Source: an uncultured delta proteobacterium (GTDB lineage: Bacteria; Desulfobacterota; Binatia; UBA9968). From it: a DNA stretch of 64,000 bases. Location of the stretch: positions 27,291-91,290 of the forward strand of contig CAWDPO010000020.1 in NCBI GenBank assembly GCA_963804165.1, given 5' to 3'. Positions 4,952-21,226 of this stretch are shown one piece after another; position 1 is the stretch's first letter; each line of letters starts with the position of its first letter. Both the position numbers and the translations under genes were made by a program. Under the pieces are notes generated by a model. It had not been told where the DNA came from. It saw only the letters and a list, made by a program, of their open reading frames with translations, and searched no databases.

Positions 4952-5028
4952 CGGGGCGTAGCGCAGCCTGGTAGCGCACACGCTTGGGGTGCGTGTGGTC
5001 ACCGGTTCAAATCCGGTCGCCCCGACCA
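4952..5028 (+). tRNA. tRNA-Pro (GGG)
   Basis: CGGGGCGTAGCGCAGCCTGGTAGCGCA...anticodon loop TTGGGGT...GGTTCAAATCC...CCCCGACCA, 77 nt with encoded CCA. Confidence 0.98.
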
Positions 5029-17550: not shown

Positions 17551-18400
17551 GTGCCTCAAGATATTTTTCCTGGGTTTTCTTGACGATCTCCGGCGGTAGC
17601 GCAGGTGGCGGCGATTTCATATCCCACGGGAGGTTGAGCAAATAGTCGCGCACGAACTGCTTGTCGAAACTATCGGGAGTTTTTCCCGGCGTGTATCCGT
17701 CCGCCGGCCAAAAGCGCGACGAATCGGGAGTCAGCACCTCGTCGATCAGGAGGATGCTATCCCCTTCGATACCGAATTCGAGCTTGGTGTCGGCGATGAT
17801 GATCCCTTTTTTTTCCGCCAGATCGCGCGCCCGGCAATAAATCGCGATGGTCGCGTCGCGCATCTTTTCGGCTCGTTGCCGGCCGATTTTACCGATCATA
17901 TCGTCGAACGTAATGTTGACGTCGTGGGCGCCCACCGGTGCTTTGGTCGACGGAGTAAATATGGGTTCAGCGAGTCGCGATGCTTCCATCAGTCCATTTG
18001 ACAGCGATATGCCGCACACCGAGCCGGTCTGTTGGTAATCTTTCCAGCCCGAGCCGGCCAGATAACCGCGGACGATGCATTCCGCCGGCGCCGGCAGGCT
18101 TTTTTTGACGAGCATCGATCGGCCCTCCAACGCGGCTTTGTGTGGCTGGCAGACGGCCGGAAATTCTTCGACACGAGTCGTGATGAGGTGATGGGGCACG
18201 ATACCTTTGACGATGCCGAACCAGAATTCAGACATCGCCGTCAGAATTTTGCCTTTATCGGGGATCAGCGTGGGCAGGATCACGTCGAAGGCAGAGATGC
18301 GATCGCTGGCGACTAACAAGAGCTTGTCGTCTAAATCATAAATGTCACGGACTTTCCCGCGGTTGAATAACTTCAGCCCGGACAGGGTTTCGTCAGTCAT
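17531..18400 (-). CDS. purC: SAICAR synthetase
   Basis: [53 protein letters not shown]. Confidence 0.98.
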
Positions 18401-18546
18401 GTGGTTGAACCTTTCTGCTAAATTCGGCTGTCATGCTTAGCGGCGCGAAGGTCGCATCGAGACAACTTCTATCCACACCATATCGTTCCGATCGTGTCAA
18501 TTTATGAATGTTGAAATCTCAAGATCCGATGGGCGACAATTTAGGA

Positions 18547-18665
18547 AAAAAGGGGCGACGTGAACTTGCCCCGTGGCGTCGATGCACAGGGCAAGTCCGT
18601 TGCAAAGTGACGCGCAGAACGGACAGCGTCGCCGATGGCGGGCGCCTAGACGACGCGGTCTCGGT
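18547..18665 (-). ncRNA. Candidate structured RNA / attenuator upstream of purC
   Basis: GGCGACG/CGTCGCC closing stem followed by U6; internal hairpins TCCGTT/AACGGA and CTTGCCC/GGGCAAG; alternative GCGTCG/CGACGC pairing. Confidence 0.5.
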
Positions 18666-18691
18666 TTGTCAGTAGCAATGATCGAGGGAAC

Positions 18692-18796
18692 TTATTTTTT
18701 CTTTATCTTACTCTTGAGCGATTCCACTCCGATCATCAGAGCAAGAAGACCAAACCCGGAGGCTAGGATCCAAACGAGGGGTTCCCACTTTCCCAT
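18692..18796 (-). CDS. Unannotated 34-aa single-TM small protein MGKWEPLVWILASGFGLLALMIGVESLKSKIKKK
   Basis: AAGGAGGAG RBS 3 nt before ATG; hydrophobic helix plus Lys tail; below the ORF-track length cut-off. Confidence 0.7.
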   Translation of the reverse strand: MGKWEPLVWILASGFGLLALMIGVESLKSKIKKK

Positions 18797-18813
18797 TTTC
18801 TCCTCCTTGCGAA

Positions 18814-18859
18814 AACGGACAGGCCAGCTGATCTCGATGGATCAGCTGGCCTGTCCGTT
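18814..18859. repeat. Perfect 20-bp inverted repeat
   Basis: AACGGACAGGCCAGCTGATC-tcgatg-GATCAGCTGGCCTGTCCGTT. Confidence 0.9.
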
Positions 18860-18919
18860 AGTTAGTCCCTCCGCGATATGCGAAGGTACGACCTAATTTA
18901 CCTGCCCGCTATCTAAAAT

Positions 18920-19015
18920 AAAAAAGCCGGCCTGAAACACGGTTTCTCAGGTCGGCCTATTTCCCAACTGGTTGAGTTCGGTCCACGCCAACCCTTCGGA
19001 AAATCGTCAGACGGT
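18920..19015 (-). promoter_or_regulatory. Structured leader with intrinsic terminator (candidate antitermination element)
   Basis: TTTTCCGA/TTGGGAAA and GGTTG/CAACC stems, then GCCGACCTGAGAAAC/GTTTCAGGCCGGC hairpin followed by TTTTTT. Confidence 0.65.
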
Positions 19016-19019
19016 TGTT

Positions 19020-19048
19020 TTTATAAAAATTACCGGCGCAAATGTCAA
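19020..19048 (-). promoter_or_regulatory. Sigma70 promoter overlapping the DUF2294 stop codon
   Basis: TTGACA-17 nt-TATAAA on the minus strand. Confidence 0.75.
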
Positions 19049-19428
19049 GACTCCTTTCGACGCGCCAATAGCTTCTCGAGATTGGTTTCCAACGTGAAAA
19101 CAAACACCCGCTCTCCTGAAGCGGTGCTGATGTCGGTATGCAAGTCCAAGATCTTCACGCCGGAAATGTCGCCGACGACCTGATCGAGAAGCGGCCGCGC
19201 TTTTTCGATGAGGATCGCGCGCATCTTCTTAACCAGCTCACCGCCATCGGTGGTCTTTGTCAGTTGTTCCTCGGCCGGGGTCAAAACACCTTTGAGCCTG
19301 ACGACGAGCATGTCTTCGATGATGTGGGCGCGCGCTTCTTTTGGGCCGCGCCCCATGTAATCGATTTCAAATTGGACGAGGGCGCGGCTGATTTCCGCTT
19401 CGATTTCACCTTTGGTTTTCATGCGCAA
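19045..19428 (-). CDS. DUF2294 / MpsC-family protein
   Basis: KTKGEIEAEIS...YMGRGP...RLKGVLTPAEEQL...LHTDISTASGERVFVFTL. Confidence 0.88.
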   Translation of the reverse strand: MRMKTKGEIEAEISRALVQFEIDYMGRGPKEARAHIIEDMLVVRLKGVLTPAEEQLTKTTDGGELVKKMRAILIEKARPLLDQVVGDISGVKILDLHTDISTASGERVFVFTLETNLEKLLARRKES

Positions 19429-19483
19429 GCAGTGCGCTGCGAGAACGCGCCGGAGCTACGGCCGTCCGGCGCGAGATGATCAT

Positions 19484-19831
19484 TCAAAGAATTGCTTTGA
19501 CTTCGGCTTCGTTGAAGCCCGTGAGCTTCTGCTTGCCCTTGATGATGACGGGGCGTTTGAGCAAATTGGCGTCCTTGAGCATAAGCTTGATTGCCTCGTC
19601 TTTGGAGGGCGGCTTTTGCTTCATGTTTCTTTCCCGATAAAGCGGCGTTCGGGTATTGAGAAAACGCTCGATCGGCTCTTCGCCGATCAGGTCGCGCAGC
19701 TCTTTTTCTGTGAAGGGACTTTTGCCGTATTCGCGCTCTGCGAAATCGATTTTTCTTGATTGCAAGAAACTTCTTGCTTTGCGGCAAGTCGTTCACGTCG
19801 CCTTATAGATAAATTTGACCTTGTCTGCCAT
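19484..19831 (-). CDS. ArsC/Spx-family thioredoxin-fold protein, probable selenoprotein (UxxC)
   Basis: MADKVKFIYKAT-TGA-TTCRKARSFL...LLKRPVII...LTGFNE; in-frame TGA at 19793-19795 in the first-Cys position. Confidence 0.85.
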
Positions 19832-19843
19832 TGGGGCGCCCTT

Positions 19844-21226
19844 TTACTTAAAGAATTTGGCGACCCGCTCGAACGCCGCCGACTCGATTTCGTTGCGCAC
19901 CGGCCATTCGGCTTTCGAATTCAACGGTATCGTGGCATCGATGATCGCGACGGTGTCGCCCAGCCAGCCGCGAAAGCTCTGCACTTCGCGGATGATCTCG
20001 ATATCCTTGTCCCAATGCACGCGGGTGGCAACCGCCCACATTACTTCGCGTTCATTGAAGACGTCGACATCCTCGTCGACGACGACCGCGAGTTTGAGAT
20101 TCGGCATCTCGACGAACGCCTGCATGCCGGCCTTATTGGGCTCGTTTTCGAATTCTTTTTTGATCGAGATGTAGCAGATGCAGCGGCCGCAGCCCGAGGC
20201 TGGGAGATGAATCGCTTTGATCCCGGGGACATTTTTCCTGATCACGTTGTAAGTGCTGCCCTCTTTGGGAATGCTGCCGAGATTCCAATGATCCATATGG
20301 CCGGGCCAGAAATCTTCGACGATGCCGCCGCGCCGGTGGGTGATTGCGGTAACTTCGATGACCGGCACGTCCATTTTCGGTTGCGCGTAACCGAGAATCT
20401 CGCCGAAGGGGTTTTGCGACTTGCGTTCGCCGGGTAAAATCTCGCCTTCGATGATCACTTCAGCATCCGCCGGAACCATGAATTTATCGCCCCAGGTCGT
20501 CGATGGGGTTAACCGAAGGGGCTCCTTCAAGAACGCCGATGCGGTTAGATAATCGTTGTTCCCCATGGCGGTCATGGCACAGGAGGAGAGATAAAATGCC
20601 GGGTGGTGTCCCAAGATAACGATCACCGGCGCGCGCAGATTCTTTTCCTCGTATTCGCAGGCCATGGCTTCCAGATGGTGATGTTTGTGCGCGGAGAAGC
20701 TCATGTGCTGCGGATCGTGGAATTTGTTTTTCGTGAACGTGATGTCGTAAAAATCGGCGTTCAATCCCTTCATGGCGCAGGTCATCGTGTGATAAGGACC
20801 GGCGTCGCCTTTTTGGTGCATCGGCATCGGCAAGACTCTGAGATCGGCCTTGTCACCGGTGAGTACAACTTCCTTGACGGGCGCTTTTTCAGGCGCAATG
20901 ACTTCGAGCTTGCCTTGCTGTTGTTCGAGCTTGGCGACTTCGAGGCTGACTTCCATCGGCGACTTAATGTCGCCCATATCCAACGAGTCTGCGACGTATT
21001 GTCGCGTCACCCACGGGTTGTAAAACATTGGGAACCCGGATTTCTGGCCGTTTAGGGCTGGAACATTTTCGAATAGAACCATCTTGGGTTCGTTGCGCAC
21101 GTCGAGGTGTTTTAGATAAGCAACGGTTTCGTAATTATTCGCATCGATGAAATTTTTCTCACGAATGACTGAACCTTCTCTCTTTGCGCCTTCCTGGGCG
21201 ATAAAACTCGGTAGATCTTTGGCCAT
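19844..21226 (-). CDS. UbiD-family (prFMN) decarboxylase
   Basis: DLRVLPMP.H...DAGPY, VPADAEVIIEG, PFGE..GY, VVVDEDVDVFN.REVMWA. Confidence 0.9.
   Translation of the reverse strand: MAKDLPSFIAQEGAKREGSVIREKNFIDANNYETVAYLKHLDVRNEPKMVLFENVPALNGQKSGFPMFYNPWVTRQYVADSLDMGDIKSPMEVSLEVAKLEQQQGKLEVIAPEKAPVKEVVLTGDKADLRVLPMPMHQKGDAGPYHTMTCAMKGLNADFYDITFTKNKFHDPQHMSFSAHKHHHLEAMACEYEEKNLRAPVIVILGHHPAFYLSSCAMTAMGNNDYLTASAFLKEPLRLTPSTTWGDKFMVPADAEVIIEGEILPGERKSQNPFGEILGYAQPKMDVPVIEVTAITHRRGGIVEDFWPGHMDHWNLGSIPKEGSTYNVIRKNVPGIKAIHLPASGCGRCICYISIKKEFENEPNKAGMQAFVEMPNLKLAVVVDEDVDVFNEREVMWAVATRVHWDKDIEIIREVQSFRGWLGDTVAIIDATIPLNSKAEWPVRNEIESAAFERVAKFFK

Follow-up and report, generated by a model that had tools for sequence, protein, structure and literature searches.

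A conserved, terminator-containing leader RNA linked to DUF2294/MpsC genes: a candidate transcription attenuator in an uncultured delta proteobacterium

Introduction

In the BglG, SacY, LicT and GlcT systems of transcription antitermination, an imperfect RAT hairpin that contains internal loops shares sequence with the 5' arm of an intrinsic terminator; termination is the default, and read-through follows when the hairpin is stabilised by a factor. The regulators of the BglG family carry a CAT RNA-binding domain together with PRD domains. In the hut operon of Bacillus subtilis the gene for a small regulator, HutP, lies directly in front of a leader that contains a terminator and controls the genes behind it, and antitermination of the HutP type is associated with UAG-triplet repeats in the RNA. 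The Na+ riboswitch (DUF1646 motif) is described, in the sections of the paper drawn on here, as a genetic ON switch in which either the aptamer or the terminator stem can form, but not both; it can be arranged in tandem with other switches, precedes genes with membrane or ion-related roles, and has conserved nucleotides at the base of P1 and in the P2 loop (White et al, 2022; PMC9337991). Neither DUF2294 nor mps genes occur in the text of that paper.

DUF2294/MpsC is a widespread family of proteins without a known function, for which 3399 close matches were returned in one search and 1418 clusters are formed at 50% identity. The only name in print for it was taken from an operon of staphylococci where, according to the parts of the study consulted (Fan et al, 2019; PMC6689103), deletion of mpsC gave no phenotype and the gene was dispensable for MpsAB function. 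The same parts describe mpsC as not being collocated with mpsAB outside the staphylococci.

The leader described here follows a DUF2294 gene on the minus strand of the window, which is the whole stretch of 64,000 nucleotides that was analysed. As in the RAT systems, its predicted rod takes in the 5' arm of an intrinsic terminator, but at approximately 64 nt the rod is much longer than a RAT hairpin and begins at the predicted +1. In contrast to the BglG family the DUF2294 protein carries PF10057 only, with no CAT or PRD domain, and no sugar-PTS genes are present in the leader loci that were read. The placing of the DUF2294 gene directly upstream of the leader, with a spacing that is fixed in 29/34 copies, is reminiscent of HutP, although here a separate conserved promoter is found between gene and leader, and Pfam assigns the protein to PF10057 and not to the HutP family. 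The apparent rod-versus-terminator ON logic, the tandem modules and the membrane genes downstream resemble what the cited sections report for the Na+ riboswitch. The leader does not match the Rfam model of that riboswitch, however (E <= 10, positions 18350..19900), and whereas conserved nucleotides are reported there for the P2 loop, the P2 tips of the leader are variable.

Results and Discussion

A promoter overlaps the stop codon of the DUF2294 gene

The positions of the features are given in Table 1. The ORF containing the DUF2294 gene spans 19428..19045 on the minus strand, with the likely start at the ATG at 19422 and a TTG further upstream at 19428. A TTGACA-17-TATAAA promoter had been predicted to overlap the stop codon, and it is indeed exact, at 19048..19020 (-), with the TGA (19047..19045) sitting within the -35 box. 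No other exact match occurs in the window; with up to one mismatch allowed the pattern is found twice, as compared with 0.07 matches expected from 100 shuffles. A generic promoter scan omitted it because that scan demands a T at the final position of the -10 box. The predicted +1 lies near 19013. Among the related copies, TTGAC precedes the first model position by 33-40 nt in 31/34, and the -35 and -10 boxes are kept while the sequence of the 17-nt spacer and the C-terminal codons of DUF2294 vary. The hexamers, a spacing within 16-18 nt and the conserved position are those of a sigma-70 promoter and, being conserved in relatives, the arrangement of promoter and leader goes beyond chance.

Table 1. 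Features of the DUF2294 locus and its leader, in window coordinates.
Feature	Position	Strand	Details
DUF2294/MpsC gene, type 1	19045..19422	-	ORF list; Pfam PF10057; AlphaFold2 model
Sigma-70-type promoter	19020..19048	-	-35 TTGACA 19048..19043; 17-nt spacer; -10 TATAAA 19025..19020
Leader element A (whole covariance-model match)	18919..19013	-	95 nt; R1 82.5 bits, E 8.8e-20
5' tail CGUCUGACGAU	19003..19013	-	11 nt; 5' strand of P0, the basal helix of the rod
P1/P2 hairpin	18959..19004	-	P1, GAUUUUCCGA with UUGGGAAAU; purine-rich AG / AG internal loop; P2
Intrinsic terminator of element A	18920..18958	-	stem 18958..18926; U-tract 18925..18920
Leader element B, second hairpin-plus-terminator module	18812..18911	-	17 copies aligned; RNAalifold
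Ribosome-binding site AAGGAGGAG	18800..18808	-	3 nt before ATG; read from sequence
34-aa small membrane protein MGKWEPLVWILASGFGLLALMIGVESLKSKIKKK	18692..18796	-	conserved as peptide

The leader is a conserved structured RNA

The structured leader of about 95 nt, with its terminator, that the original prediction had placed after the promoter is present at 19013..18919. The 226-nt stretch 19025..18800 (-) folds with -100.4 kcal/mol as compared with a mean of -64.9 for shuffled sequences (z = -7.99), and none of 200 shuffles equals it. A terminator scan reports a hairpin and U-tract at 18951..18931 (-), followed by CCGGCTTTTT; the full fold extends the terminator to 18958..18920, with a G+C-rich stem and a U-tract directly 3' to it, as is seen in intrinsic terminators.

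Alignment of element A gives strong evidence that this structure is maintained. RNAalifold on 11 sequences returns 30 pairs with compensatory changes in 12. In 37 sequences 93.0% of cells pair for P1, P2 and the terminator taken together and 19 pairs show double changes; the observed value is reached by 0/500 shuffles, and controls in which the pairing was slid give 28-57%. At pair 18-66, for example, 20 sequences have GC, 11 AU and 5 GU, and at pair 24-60 UA occurs in 23 and CG in 11. For the terminator helices the fraction of paired cells is 92.3% and 93.1%, covariation is seen at each of the five pairs in the upper helix, and the stem is followed by a run of U, at least four long and five or more in the other copies, in 36/37 sequences, the one exception (L028) having CUCCUG before its U-run. 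P2 is GGUUGG..CAACC with a tip that is variable in both length and sequence, and the conserved nucleotides are concentrated in the internal loops. Purine internal loops include GACGAU/AAUAGG at the base of the rod and AG/AG between P1 and P2. The sequence of the tail varies by subgroup (GUCUGAC, GGUUUGCA) with the structure retained.

No family of Rfam matches the leader. With Rfam 15 at the gathering score, the sole match in the whole window is a tRNA at 4952..5025; relaxing the threshold to E <= 10 over 18350..19900 gives just eight spurious matches to microRNA, lncRNA and sRNA models, and ten related loci give none. The leader is a new RNA class, absent from Rfam 15, and the evidence supports a genuine structured RNA, conserved and equipped with a promoter and terminator of its own.

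The leader RNA tracks the DUF2294 gene

The covariance model finds covarying homologues, and these keep company with DUF2294. The RNA is present in 38/90 genomes of the source family, probably Candidatus Binatia, and PF10057 in 42/90: 36 genomes have both, two the RNA only, six DUF2294 only and 46 neither, so that 36/38 RNA-positive genomes carry DUF2294, although the table overstates the support because related genomes are not independent. One of the two RNA-only genomes (G003) retains a truncated DUF2294 remnant, and in the other (G063) the leader lies 101 nt from the end of a contig. Among the six with DUF2294 but without a strong R1 match, one shows a deletion (G019) and two (G074 and G081) have weak R2 matches only. 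The distance from the DUF2294 stop to the start of the leader is 29-32 nt in 29/34 copies; five do not follow DUF2294. Element A follows the gene wherever it sits and whatever its upstream neighbours. Of 59 pattern hits in the genome contigs, 34 were taken as chance because the model did not confirm them, and none of five arbitrary genomes to which chance hits of the pattern had led carries DUF2294.

The association extends outside the source family. R2 matches are found downstream, on the same strand, of 7/7 DUF2294 genes in six genomes from other families of the phylum, with E-values of 1.9e-9 to 0.09 that are weaker than in the source family, and in 8/13 DUF2294 loci of a Planctomycetota sample, where they are likewise weaker. 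When strict filters were applied to R2 in 151 whole Planctomycetota genomes, one was positive and this one carries DUF2294. The co-occurrence in the 90 genomes and the spacing in 29/34 copies support a tight linkage of the leader RNA to DUF2294.

The DUF2294 protein

The protein has 125 residues and matches PF10057 (MpsC) over profile positions 1-110 of 111 (E 3.6e-36, 124.1 bits, cut-off 23), the sole Pfam family on this leader-adjacent protein. It is predicted by AlphaFold2 with a mean pLDDT of 97.4. Comparison with the PDB gave no matches to the sequence at E <= 1 and none to the model at E <= 0.001 with Foldseek. In a wide VIA-align comparison the best structural Z of the model was 6.6, with TRAPP Bet3-type chains at 6.0 and 5.5, RbfA at 5.5 and a V4R protein at 4.5; all of these scores lie where a common arrangement alone may explain them. 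Neither Foldseek nor VIA-align revealed a recognisable RNA-binding fold in the predicted structure. The homodimer prediction scored 0.26, as compared with a mark of 0.42.

Element B and the genes behind the leader

The further hairpins, strong ribosome-binding site and 34-aa ORF of the original prediction are all found downstream of element A. The hairpins belong to element B, where a 5' tail UAGCGGGCAGG precedes a terminator with a perfect 20-bp stem (18859..18814, minus strand) followed by UUUU. RNAalifold on the 17 copies gives 25 pairs with compensatory changes in 12. In folds of shortened transcripts the 5' arm of the terminator is taken up in the base of a rod, which is the same design as in element A.

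The 34-aa peptide has homologues with 53-59% identity in three loci (L003, L009 and L011) and 74% over the retained part in a fourth (L002), and more are readable behind the leaders of L027, L033 and L044. It belongs to no Pfam or NCBIfam family, and a search of a protein atlas gave scores of no more than 0.81. In 15 loci the leader is followed by element B, a ribosome-binding site and either a permease or the 34-aa ORF, and in seven there is a 53-aa two-helix membrane ORF with AAGGGAGG some 45 nt past the terminator. In most loci of the source family the leader is followed first by a gene for a small membrane protein or for a TauC/SsuC/NtrB-like permease, and the leader class would define a small-membrane-protein regulon in this uncultured lineage. 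The same-strand genes with ribosome-binding sites begin 15-45 nt after the U-tract, and no promoter-like sequence was seen between the two in the stretches read. Some genomes have several leader copies before different genes, tandem A-B modules occur, and in some loci of the source family and of Planctomycetota the gene behind the leader is a divergent second type of DUF2294. The idea of a terminal small RNA with convergent neighbours was dropped, given the small same-strand ORFs behind the leader.

The 5' tail and the terminator 3' arm are predicted to compete for the same strand

When the 3' arm of the terminator is left out, the 5' tail of element A can, in the folds, pair with the terminator 5' arm to give a rod-shaped antiterminator. 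Positions 18958..18951 (-) serve both as the 3' strand of the rod base and as the 5' arm of the terminator, and the tail and the terminator 3' arm would compete for them. Without the 3' arm the tail pairs with the 5' arm in the minimum-energy folds of 28/31 copies; when whole copies are folded, 31 of the 33 listed form the terminator, and two degenerate copies (L045 and L046) retain the rod. Over the full rod (P0-P1-P2) 85.3% of cells pair, and over P0 and the P1 extension 75.7%, as compared with 21.6-42.8% when slid. Double changes are seen at only 5/11 pairs of P0, a level reached by 6/500 shuffles, and the support for P0 comes chiefly from invariant positions.

For the window copy the rod has an energy of -20.7 kcal/mol with P0 and -17.8 without. 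The minimum-energy fold of its shortened transcript is a pairing of GGGUUGGC with GCCGACCU, at -22.9 as against -20.7 for the rod. When each tail was paired with its own terminator arm or with a swapped one, the two could not be told apart (mean -6.25 and -6.11 +/- 0.20 kcal/mol, respectively), with 248/1000 shuffles at least as good. Pairing of GGUUGG with the terminator arm was also considered as a conserved antiterminator and dropped, as it is not kept in the subgroup with GCUGCC in P2.

A model for attenuation, and its alternatives

The reading that we favour, to which we would give a probability of roughly 55%, is that the leader is a cis-acting transcription attenuator, off by default, that is turned on by a factor holding the rod, most likely the adjacent DUF2294 protein. 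The near-consensus promoter overlapping the DUF2294 stop would start the RNA at about 19013, and the first 64 nt or so would fold as the long rod P0-P1-P2, with P0 made from the 5' tail and the terminator 5' arm. P0 is weak, consisting of isolated pairs broken by purine mismatches. Once transcribed, the 3' arm would displace the tail to form the far more stable terminator and transcription would stop, making off the default state. If a factor clamped the rod at its base, the 5' arm would stay occupied and the polymerase could read through into element B, which has the same design, and then into the 34-aa membrane-protein gene. The likeliest candidate for this factor would be the DUF2294/MpsC protein, possibly responding to a ligand. 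We infer, then, that the rod acts as an antiterminator with off as the default, and the DUF2294 protein is the prime candidate for the factor that binds it.

The rod could instead be an aptamer that senses a small molecule or ion, with DUF2294 as a conserved neighbour or co-functioning gene. The rod-versus-terminator logic matches that of ON riboswitches, such as the Na+ riboswitch as presented in the sections cited above (PMC9337991). The internal loops hold the conserved nucleotides, as an aptamer might, but the rod is unbranched with variable tip loops and has neither junction nor pseudoknot. Unbranched rods with variable tips are more typical of protein-binding sites. The tandem of elements A and B also fits, since tandem modules are known among riboswitches, as does the DUF2294 fold, which has no sign of RNA binding, and in some loci the divergent second DUF2294 type is the regulated gene and not the upstream neighbour. 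In the 90 genomes, however, the RNA is found without DUF2294 only at a gene remnant or a contig end, the spacing of 29-32 nt to the DUF2294 stop is fixed in 29/34 copies, and no Rfam riboswitch model matched. On balance this explanation appears unlikely.

Less likely again is that the leader, of about 95 nt, acts in trans as an independent small RNA whose conserved 5' tail would be the seed for target mRNAs. The conserved promoter and strong terminator would suit such an RNA, but same-strand genes with ribosome-binding sites lie 15-45 nt past the U-tract. A small RNA would also suit the conserved 5' stretch, which the minimum-energy fold of the whole leader leaves unpaired; the tail is, however, complementary, in register, to the terminator 5' arm and differs in sequence among subgroups while the structure is kept. 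That the first downstream gene varies among loci is consistent with a small RNA; multiple copies before different genes and the tandem A-B modules speak against one. It is very improbable that the element is a mere 3' untranslated region and terminator of a UbiD-ArsC-DUF2294 operon, with incidental boxes and pairings. The terminator would indeed end transcripts derived from upstream too, and the element tracks DUF2294 whatever lies upstream of the gene. Plain terminators, however, are not known to keep a hairpin of 60 nt in front of them with compensatory changes between genera and phyla, the -35 and -10 boxes are conserved next to a variable spacer and variable C-terminal codons, and 5/34 copies do not follow DUF2294 at all.

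Returning to attenuation through DUF2294, a wider and more tentative suggestion, which we place a little short of even odds, is that DUF2294/MpsC is an unrecognised family of RNA-binding, probably ligand-responsive antiterminators that forms with the rod leader a multi-phylum pair switching on membrane or stress-type genes through blockage of an intrinsic terminator. If true, this would give DUF2294 a first function. An RNA switch locked to the DUF2294 gene provides a concrete, testable hypothesis for the role of the protein and, since its parts are few and small, namely a promoter, a 95-nt leader and a single protein of 125 residues, the system should reconstitute easily in a laboratory host.

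The carbon theme

The original prediction was of a new antitermination system possibly read by DUF2294 in response to CO2 or bicarbonate. The conserved RNA, promoter, terminator, alternative pairing and linkage to DUF2294 speak for such a system; the CO2/bicarbonate signal is the part that found no support. Neither the dispensability of mpsC and its lack of collocation with mpsAB outside the staphylococci, as given in the consulted parts of PMC6689103, nor the first downstream genes, which are mostly small membrane proteins or a permease, lend it weight. The annotated neighbours in the window are UbiD-like, ArsC/Spx-like, purC, a C15 peptidase and an aldehyde dehydrogenase, and the MpsABC arrangement of mpsC beside mpsA/mpsB is not found among them. 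UbiD and purC had been taken to fit a carbon-flux theme. As UbiD lies upstream of the promoter it is not controlled by the leader, and purC is the first sizeable downstream gene in some loci only.

The DUF2294 gene is followed by a conserved promoter and a leader RNA

Behind a conserved promoter and locked to a DUF2294 (MpsC) gene, the locus carries two modules that probably act as a terminator switch. The DUF2294 gene, promoter, leader, terminator, further hairpin, ribosome-binding site and 34-aa ORF are all present where the original prediction had placed them.

Features of the locus and related sequences in the window
Feature	Position	Strand	Remarks
ArsC/Spx-like gene	19831..19484	-	between UbiD and DUF2294; in-frame TGA 19795..19793
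Hairpin after in-frame TGA	19788..19773	-	directly after the TGA
DUF2294/MpsC gene	19428..19045, likely ATG 19422	-	125-127 aa; Pfam PF10057, E 3.6e-36
Promoter TTGACA-N17-TATAAA	TATAAA 19025..19020	-	DUF2294 stop TGA (19047..19045) inside TTGACA
Leader RNA (type A)	19013..18919	-	95 nt
Terminator-like hairpin and U-tract	within leader	-	read in sequence
Type-B module	18911..18812	-	second module
Perfect 20-bp hairpin	18859..18814	-	terminator of the type-B module
Ribosome-binding site AAGGAGGAG	ahead of 34-aa ORF	-	present in sequence
34-aa ORF	18796..18692	-	present in window
Terminator-like stretch, GGGGCAAGTTCACGTCGCCCC then TTTTTT	18540..18580	-	between 34-aa ORF and purC
One-mismatch promoter match, TTGACA...TAAAAA	26435..26463	+	second match in window

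TTGACA-N17-TATAAA has its sole exact match in the 64-kb window here, and with up to one mismatch there are two matches against 0.07 expected. The promoter is absent from a generic promoter scan because that scan demands T as the last base of the -10 box. In aligned related loci CTTGAC is invariant at the DUF2294 stop, the 17-nt spacer is variable and the -10 box reads TATAAA/G or TAGCAT; downstream of it comes a conserved RNA, about 95 nt long, with a terminator at its end. The predicted +1, 6-7 nt past the -10 box, is the first nucleotide of the rod, a predicted paired form of the leader that is an alternative to the terminator. The 226 nt at 19025..18800 (-) fold with z = -7.99, none of 200 shuffles being as stable. 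The further terminator-like stretch downstream looks, from its sequence, as if it would part the 34-aa ORF from purC.

The leader belongs to an uncatalogued RNA class

At the gathering score Rfam 15 gave a single match in the whole window, a tRNA, and none on the leader; at E <= 10 over the leader region the matches were spurious only, so that the leader, predicted to be part of a new system, is without an Rfam 15 match. It is a member of an uncatalogued RNA class that extends to other phyla. Searched at the DNA level, 12 of 61 genomes contain the region, the window's own included, and RNAalifold on 11 type-A copies gives 30 pairs, 12 with compensatory changes. Of 90 family genomes, 38, belonging to 14 of 23 genera, have a match to R1, a covariance model of type A; some carry 2-4 copies. 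In A3, an alignment of 37 copies, 93.0% of cells are paired and both partners change in 19 of the 30 pairs; no shuffle out of 500 came up to this, and slid controls pair 28-57%. The predicted structured leader has both homologues and covariation. Rows and counts include L040, a two-copy locus of the unpublished genome G035, and no claim is built on L040 alone. A pattern scan of genome contigs returned 59 stretches, of which R1 confirmed 25, all from metagenome-assembled genomes labelled Candidatus Binatia, Deltaproteobacteria, delta proteobacterium, Syntrophobacter(aceae) or Thermodesulfobacteriota.

DUF2294 is rare in the phylum sample (7 of 201 genomes, counting the window's own). In the other six genomes all seven DUF2294 genes have a match to R2, a broader model, downstream on the same strand (33-kb search, E 1.9e-9 to 0.09), and in several of these loci a CTTGAC box stands at the DUF2294 stop codon or close to it. 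The Planctomycetota sample of 151 genomes was centred on a Pirellula genome met as a chance pattern hit. DUF2294 occurs in 12 of these genomes, and R2 leaders were found in 8 of the 13 DUF2294 loci searched (E 6.2e-8 to 0.009). Three of the eight have the gene-promoter-leader order of the window; among the others, some leaders diverge from a type-1 gene and some precede a DUF2294 gene of type 2. One subgroup has a tail, GUCGG, that is fully complementary to the terminator arm CCGAC. R2 is too weak for whole-genome searching, where it matched in only 1 of the 151 genomes, a DUF2294 carrier.

The RNA and DUF2294 occur together

Of these 90 family genomes, 42 carry PF10057. RNA and DUF2294 are found together in 36, RNA alone in two, DUF2294 alone in six and neither in 46, counts that describe a pattern rather than a statistical test, related genomes not being independent. 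The proposed co-occurrence is thus seen in 36 of 38 RNA-positive genomes, and the two RNA-only genomes are explained: G003 has a 3' remnant of the DUF2294 gene ahead of the promoter, and the G063 contig, 2697 nt long, ends 101 nt from the RNA. Among the DUF2294-only genomes, a deletion in G019 (L107 1400..1500) joins the 3' end of the gene to the middle of a small downstream ORF, so that promoter, leader and the first half of a 53-aa ORF are gone. The gene is at a contig end in G061, weak R2 matches lie downstream of it in G074 and G081, and the PF10057 protein matches of G068 and G086 are themselves weak. Of 34 type-A copies, 29 start 29-32 nt past a DUF2294 stop, the five exceptions being second copies or copies behind other genes. 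The window's own genome (81% complete) has one DUF2294 gene and one RNA copy.

DUF2294 is a large family, with 3399 hits in a homologue search and, counted separately, 1418 clusters at 50% identity. Close homologues are labelled '[Candidatus Binatia bacterium]'; together with the genome titles given above, this makes the host probably a member of Binatia. Its AlphaFold2 model, built from 58 sequences, is confident (mean pLDDT 97.4), with the order helix-strand-strand-helix-helix-strand-strand-helix; comparison with solved structures gave no sequence match and no clear fold match. Near-invariant residues are the GRG loop, R68 and K65, and the acidic E8, D37, E51, D97 and E104. A full-text literature search for DUF2294, PF10057, MpsC-like or the YbcI family gave no paper tying the protein to an RNA. 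Fan et al. (2019, PMC6689103) report that deleting mpsC in staphylococci causes no phenotype, that the gene is dispensable in complementation, and that outside staphylococci it is not collocated with mpsAB. The CO2/bicarbonate response originally proposed finds no support in the family of the window.

Predicted rod and terminator forms of the leader

In the alignment P1 pairs 5' GAU-NN-CCCRA with UYGGG-NN-AU and is longer than first predicted. When each copy was ended at the 5' arm of the terminator, the minimum-energy structure was one long rod in 28 of 31 copies, with the 5' tail (about the first 9 nt) paired to that arm as helix P0. Full-length folds gave the terminator and an upper hairpin instead of the rod in 31 of 33 copies; L045 and L046, loci with degenerate terminators, kept the rod. 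Over the whole rod 85.3% of cells are paired. For P0 and the P1 extension (11 pairs) the value is 75.7%, against 21.6-42.8% in slid controls, and five pairs show double changes, a number reached by 6 of 500 shuffles. The covariation support for P0 is thin because P0 is mostly invariant, and the helix is broken by conserved purine mismatches. In the window's copy P0 contributes -2.9 kcal/mol (-20.7 versus -17.8), but the minimum-energy truncated fold of that copy is a different pairing at -22.9 kcal/mol, which counts against the rod. A rough duplex comparison, with each tail set against its own arm or a swapped one, gave no discrimination (248/1000). In folds type B forms the same kind of rod, built on its own terminator arm.

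Genes behind the leader and the nature of the proposed switch

Among 33 classifiable type-A copies, the first downstream gene is a BPD_transp_1 permease reached via type B in 11, the 53-aa ORF in seven, the 34-aa ORF in six (4/6 via type B), a membrane protein starting MNPLL in two and a Crp-family regulator behind a type-B-like module in two. Single copies precede purC, a TctC-family receptor, and a second, divergent type of DUF2294 with TerC behind it; two are unclear. On first view such a variable, sometimes convergent, downstream gene would suit a stand-alone small RNA. Against this, seven loci have AAGGGAGG about 45 nt past the terminator and then the conserved 53-aa ORF, whose product has two hydrophobic segments, and in 15 loci, the window included, type A is followed by the terminator-ended type-B module and then directly by a ribosome-binding site and gene. 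A stand-alone small RNA is improbable, and we favour an attenuator, with a probability of roughly 0.8. DUF2294 is a candidate for the factor operating this attenuator, a proposal to which we give even odds. Direct ligand sensing by the leader, as a riboswitch, seems unlikely. The Na+ riboswitch (PMC9337991) is a different motif, and its description never mentions DUF2294.

Type B, in 17 aligned copies, has 25 pairs, 12 of them compensatory. The 53-aa ORF (MNSTTYIIAGVLLIIVGVVGLYYIRQFPG...; L017-L023, about 45-210 nt past the type-A terminator) has a strong ribosome-binding site and takes the place of the type-B module and 34-aa ORF in these seven loci. The permease resembles TauC/SsuC/NtrB and scores under every equivalog cut-off. 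The 34-aa peptide is 53-59% identical in three loci; in a fourth, the portion that is retained is 74% identical, and three further loci also have a readable copy. In G020, which of all DNA-search matches has the highest DNA identity (86%), a deletion has taken out the stretch extending from the terminator loop as far as codon 8 of the 34-aa ORF (L002 390..405). With the G019 deletion, this makes two relatives with losses inside the module, which in some lineages appears to be decaying.

The divergent second DUF2294 type lies downstream of leaders at L017 2154..2510, L044 856..1218 (-) and L041 1841..2227 (PF10057 E 1e-9 to 1e-11), followed by HtpX-like (M48), TerC or TMEM14-like membrane proteins; it also stands directly behind the leader in some Planctomycetota loci.

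The in-frame TGA of the neighbouring ArsC/Spx-like gene occupies the first cysteine position of a CxxC-type motif (KAT-TGA-TTCRKA). Read with Sec, the protein matches NCBIfam TIGR01617 (Spx/MgsR subfamily) at 83.4 bits (cut-off 75.05) and also 'ArsC family (seleno)protein'. The listed ORFs of relatives start just past the same TGA position, which suggests that the product is probably a conserved selenoprotein.
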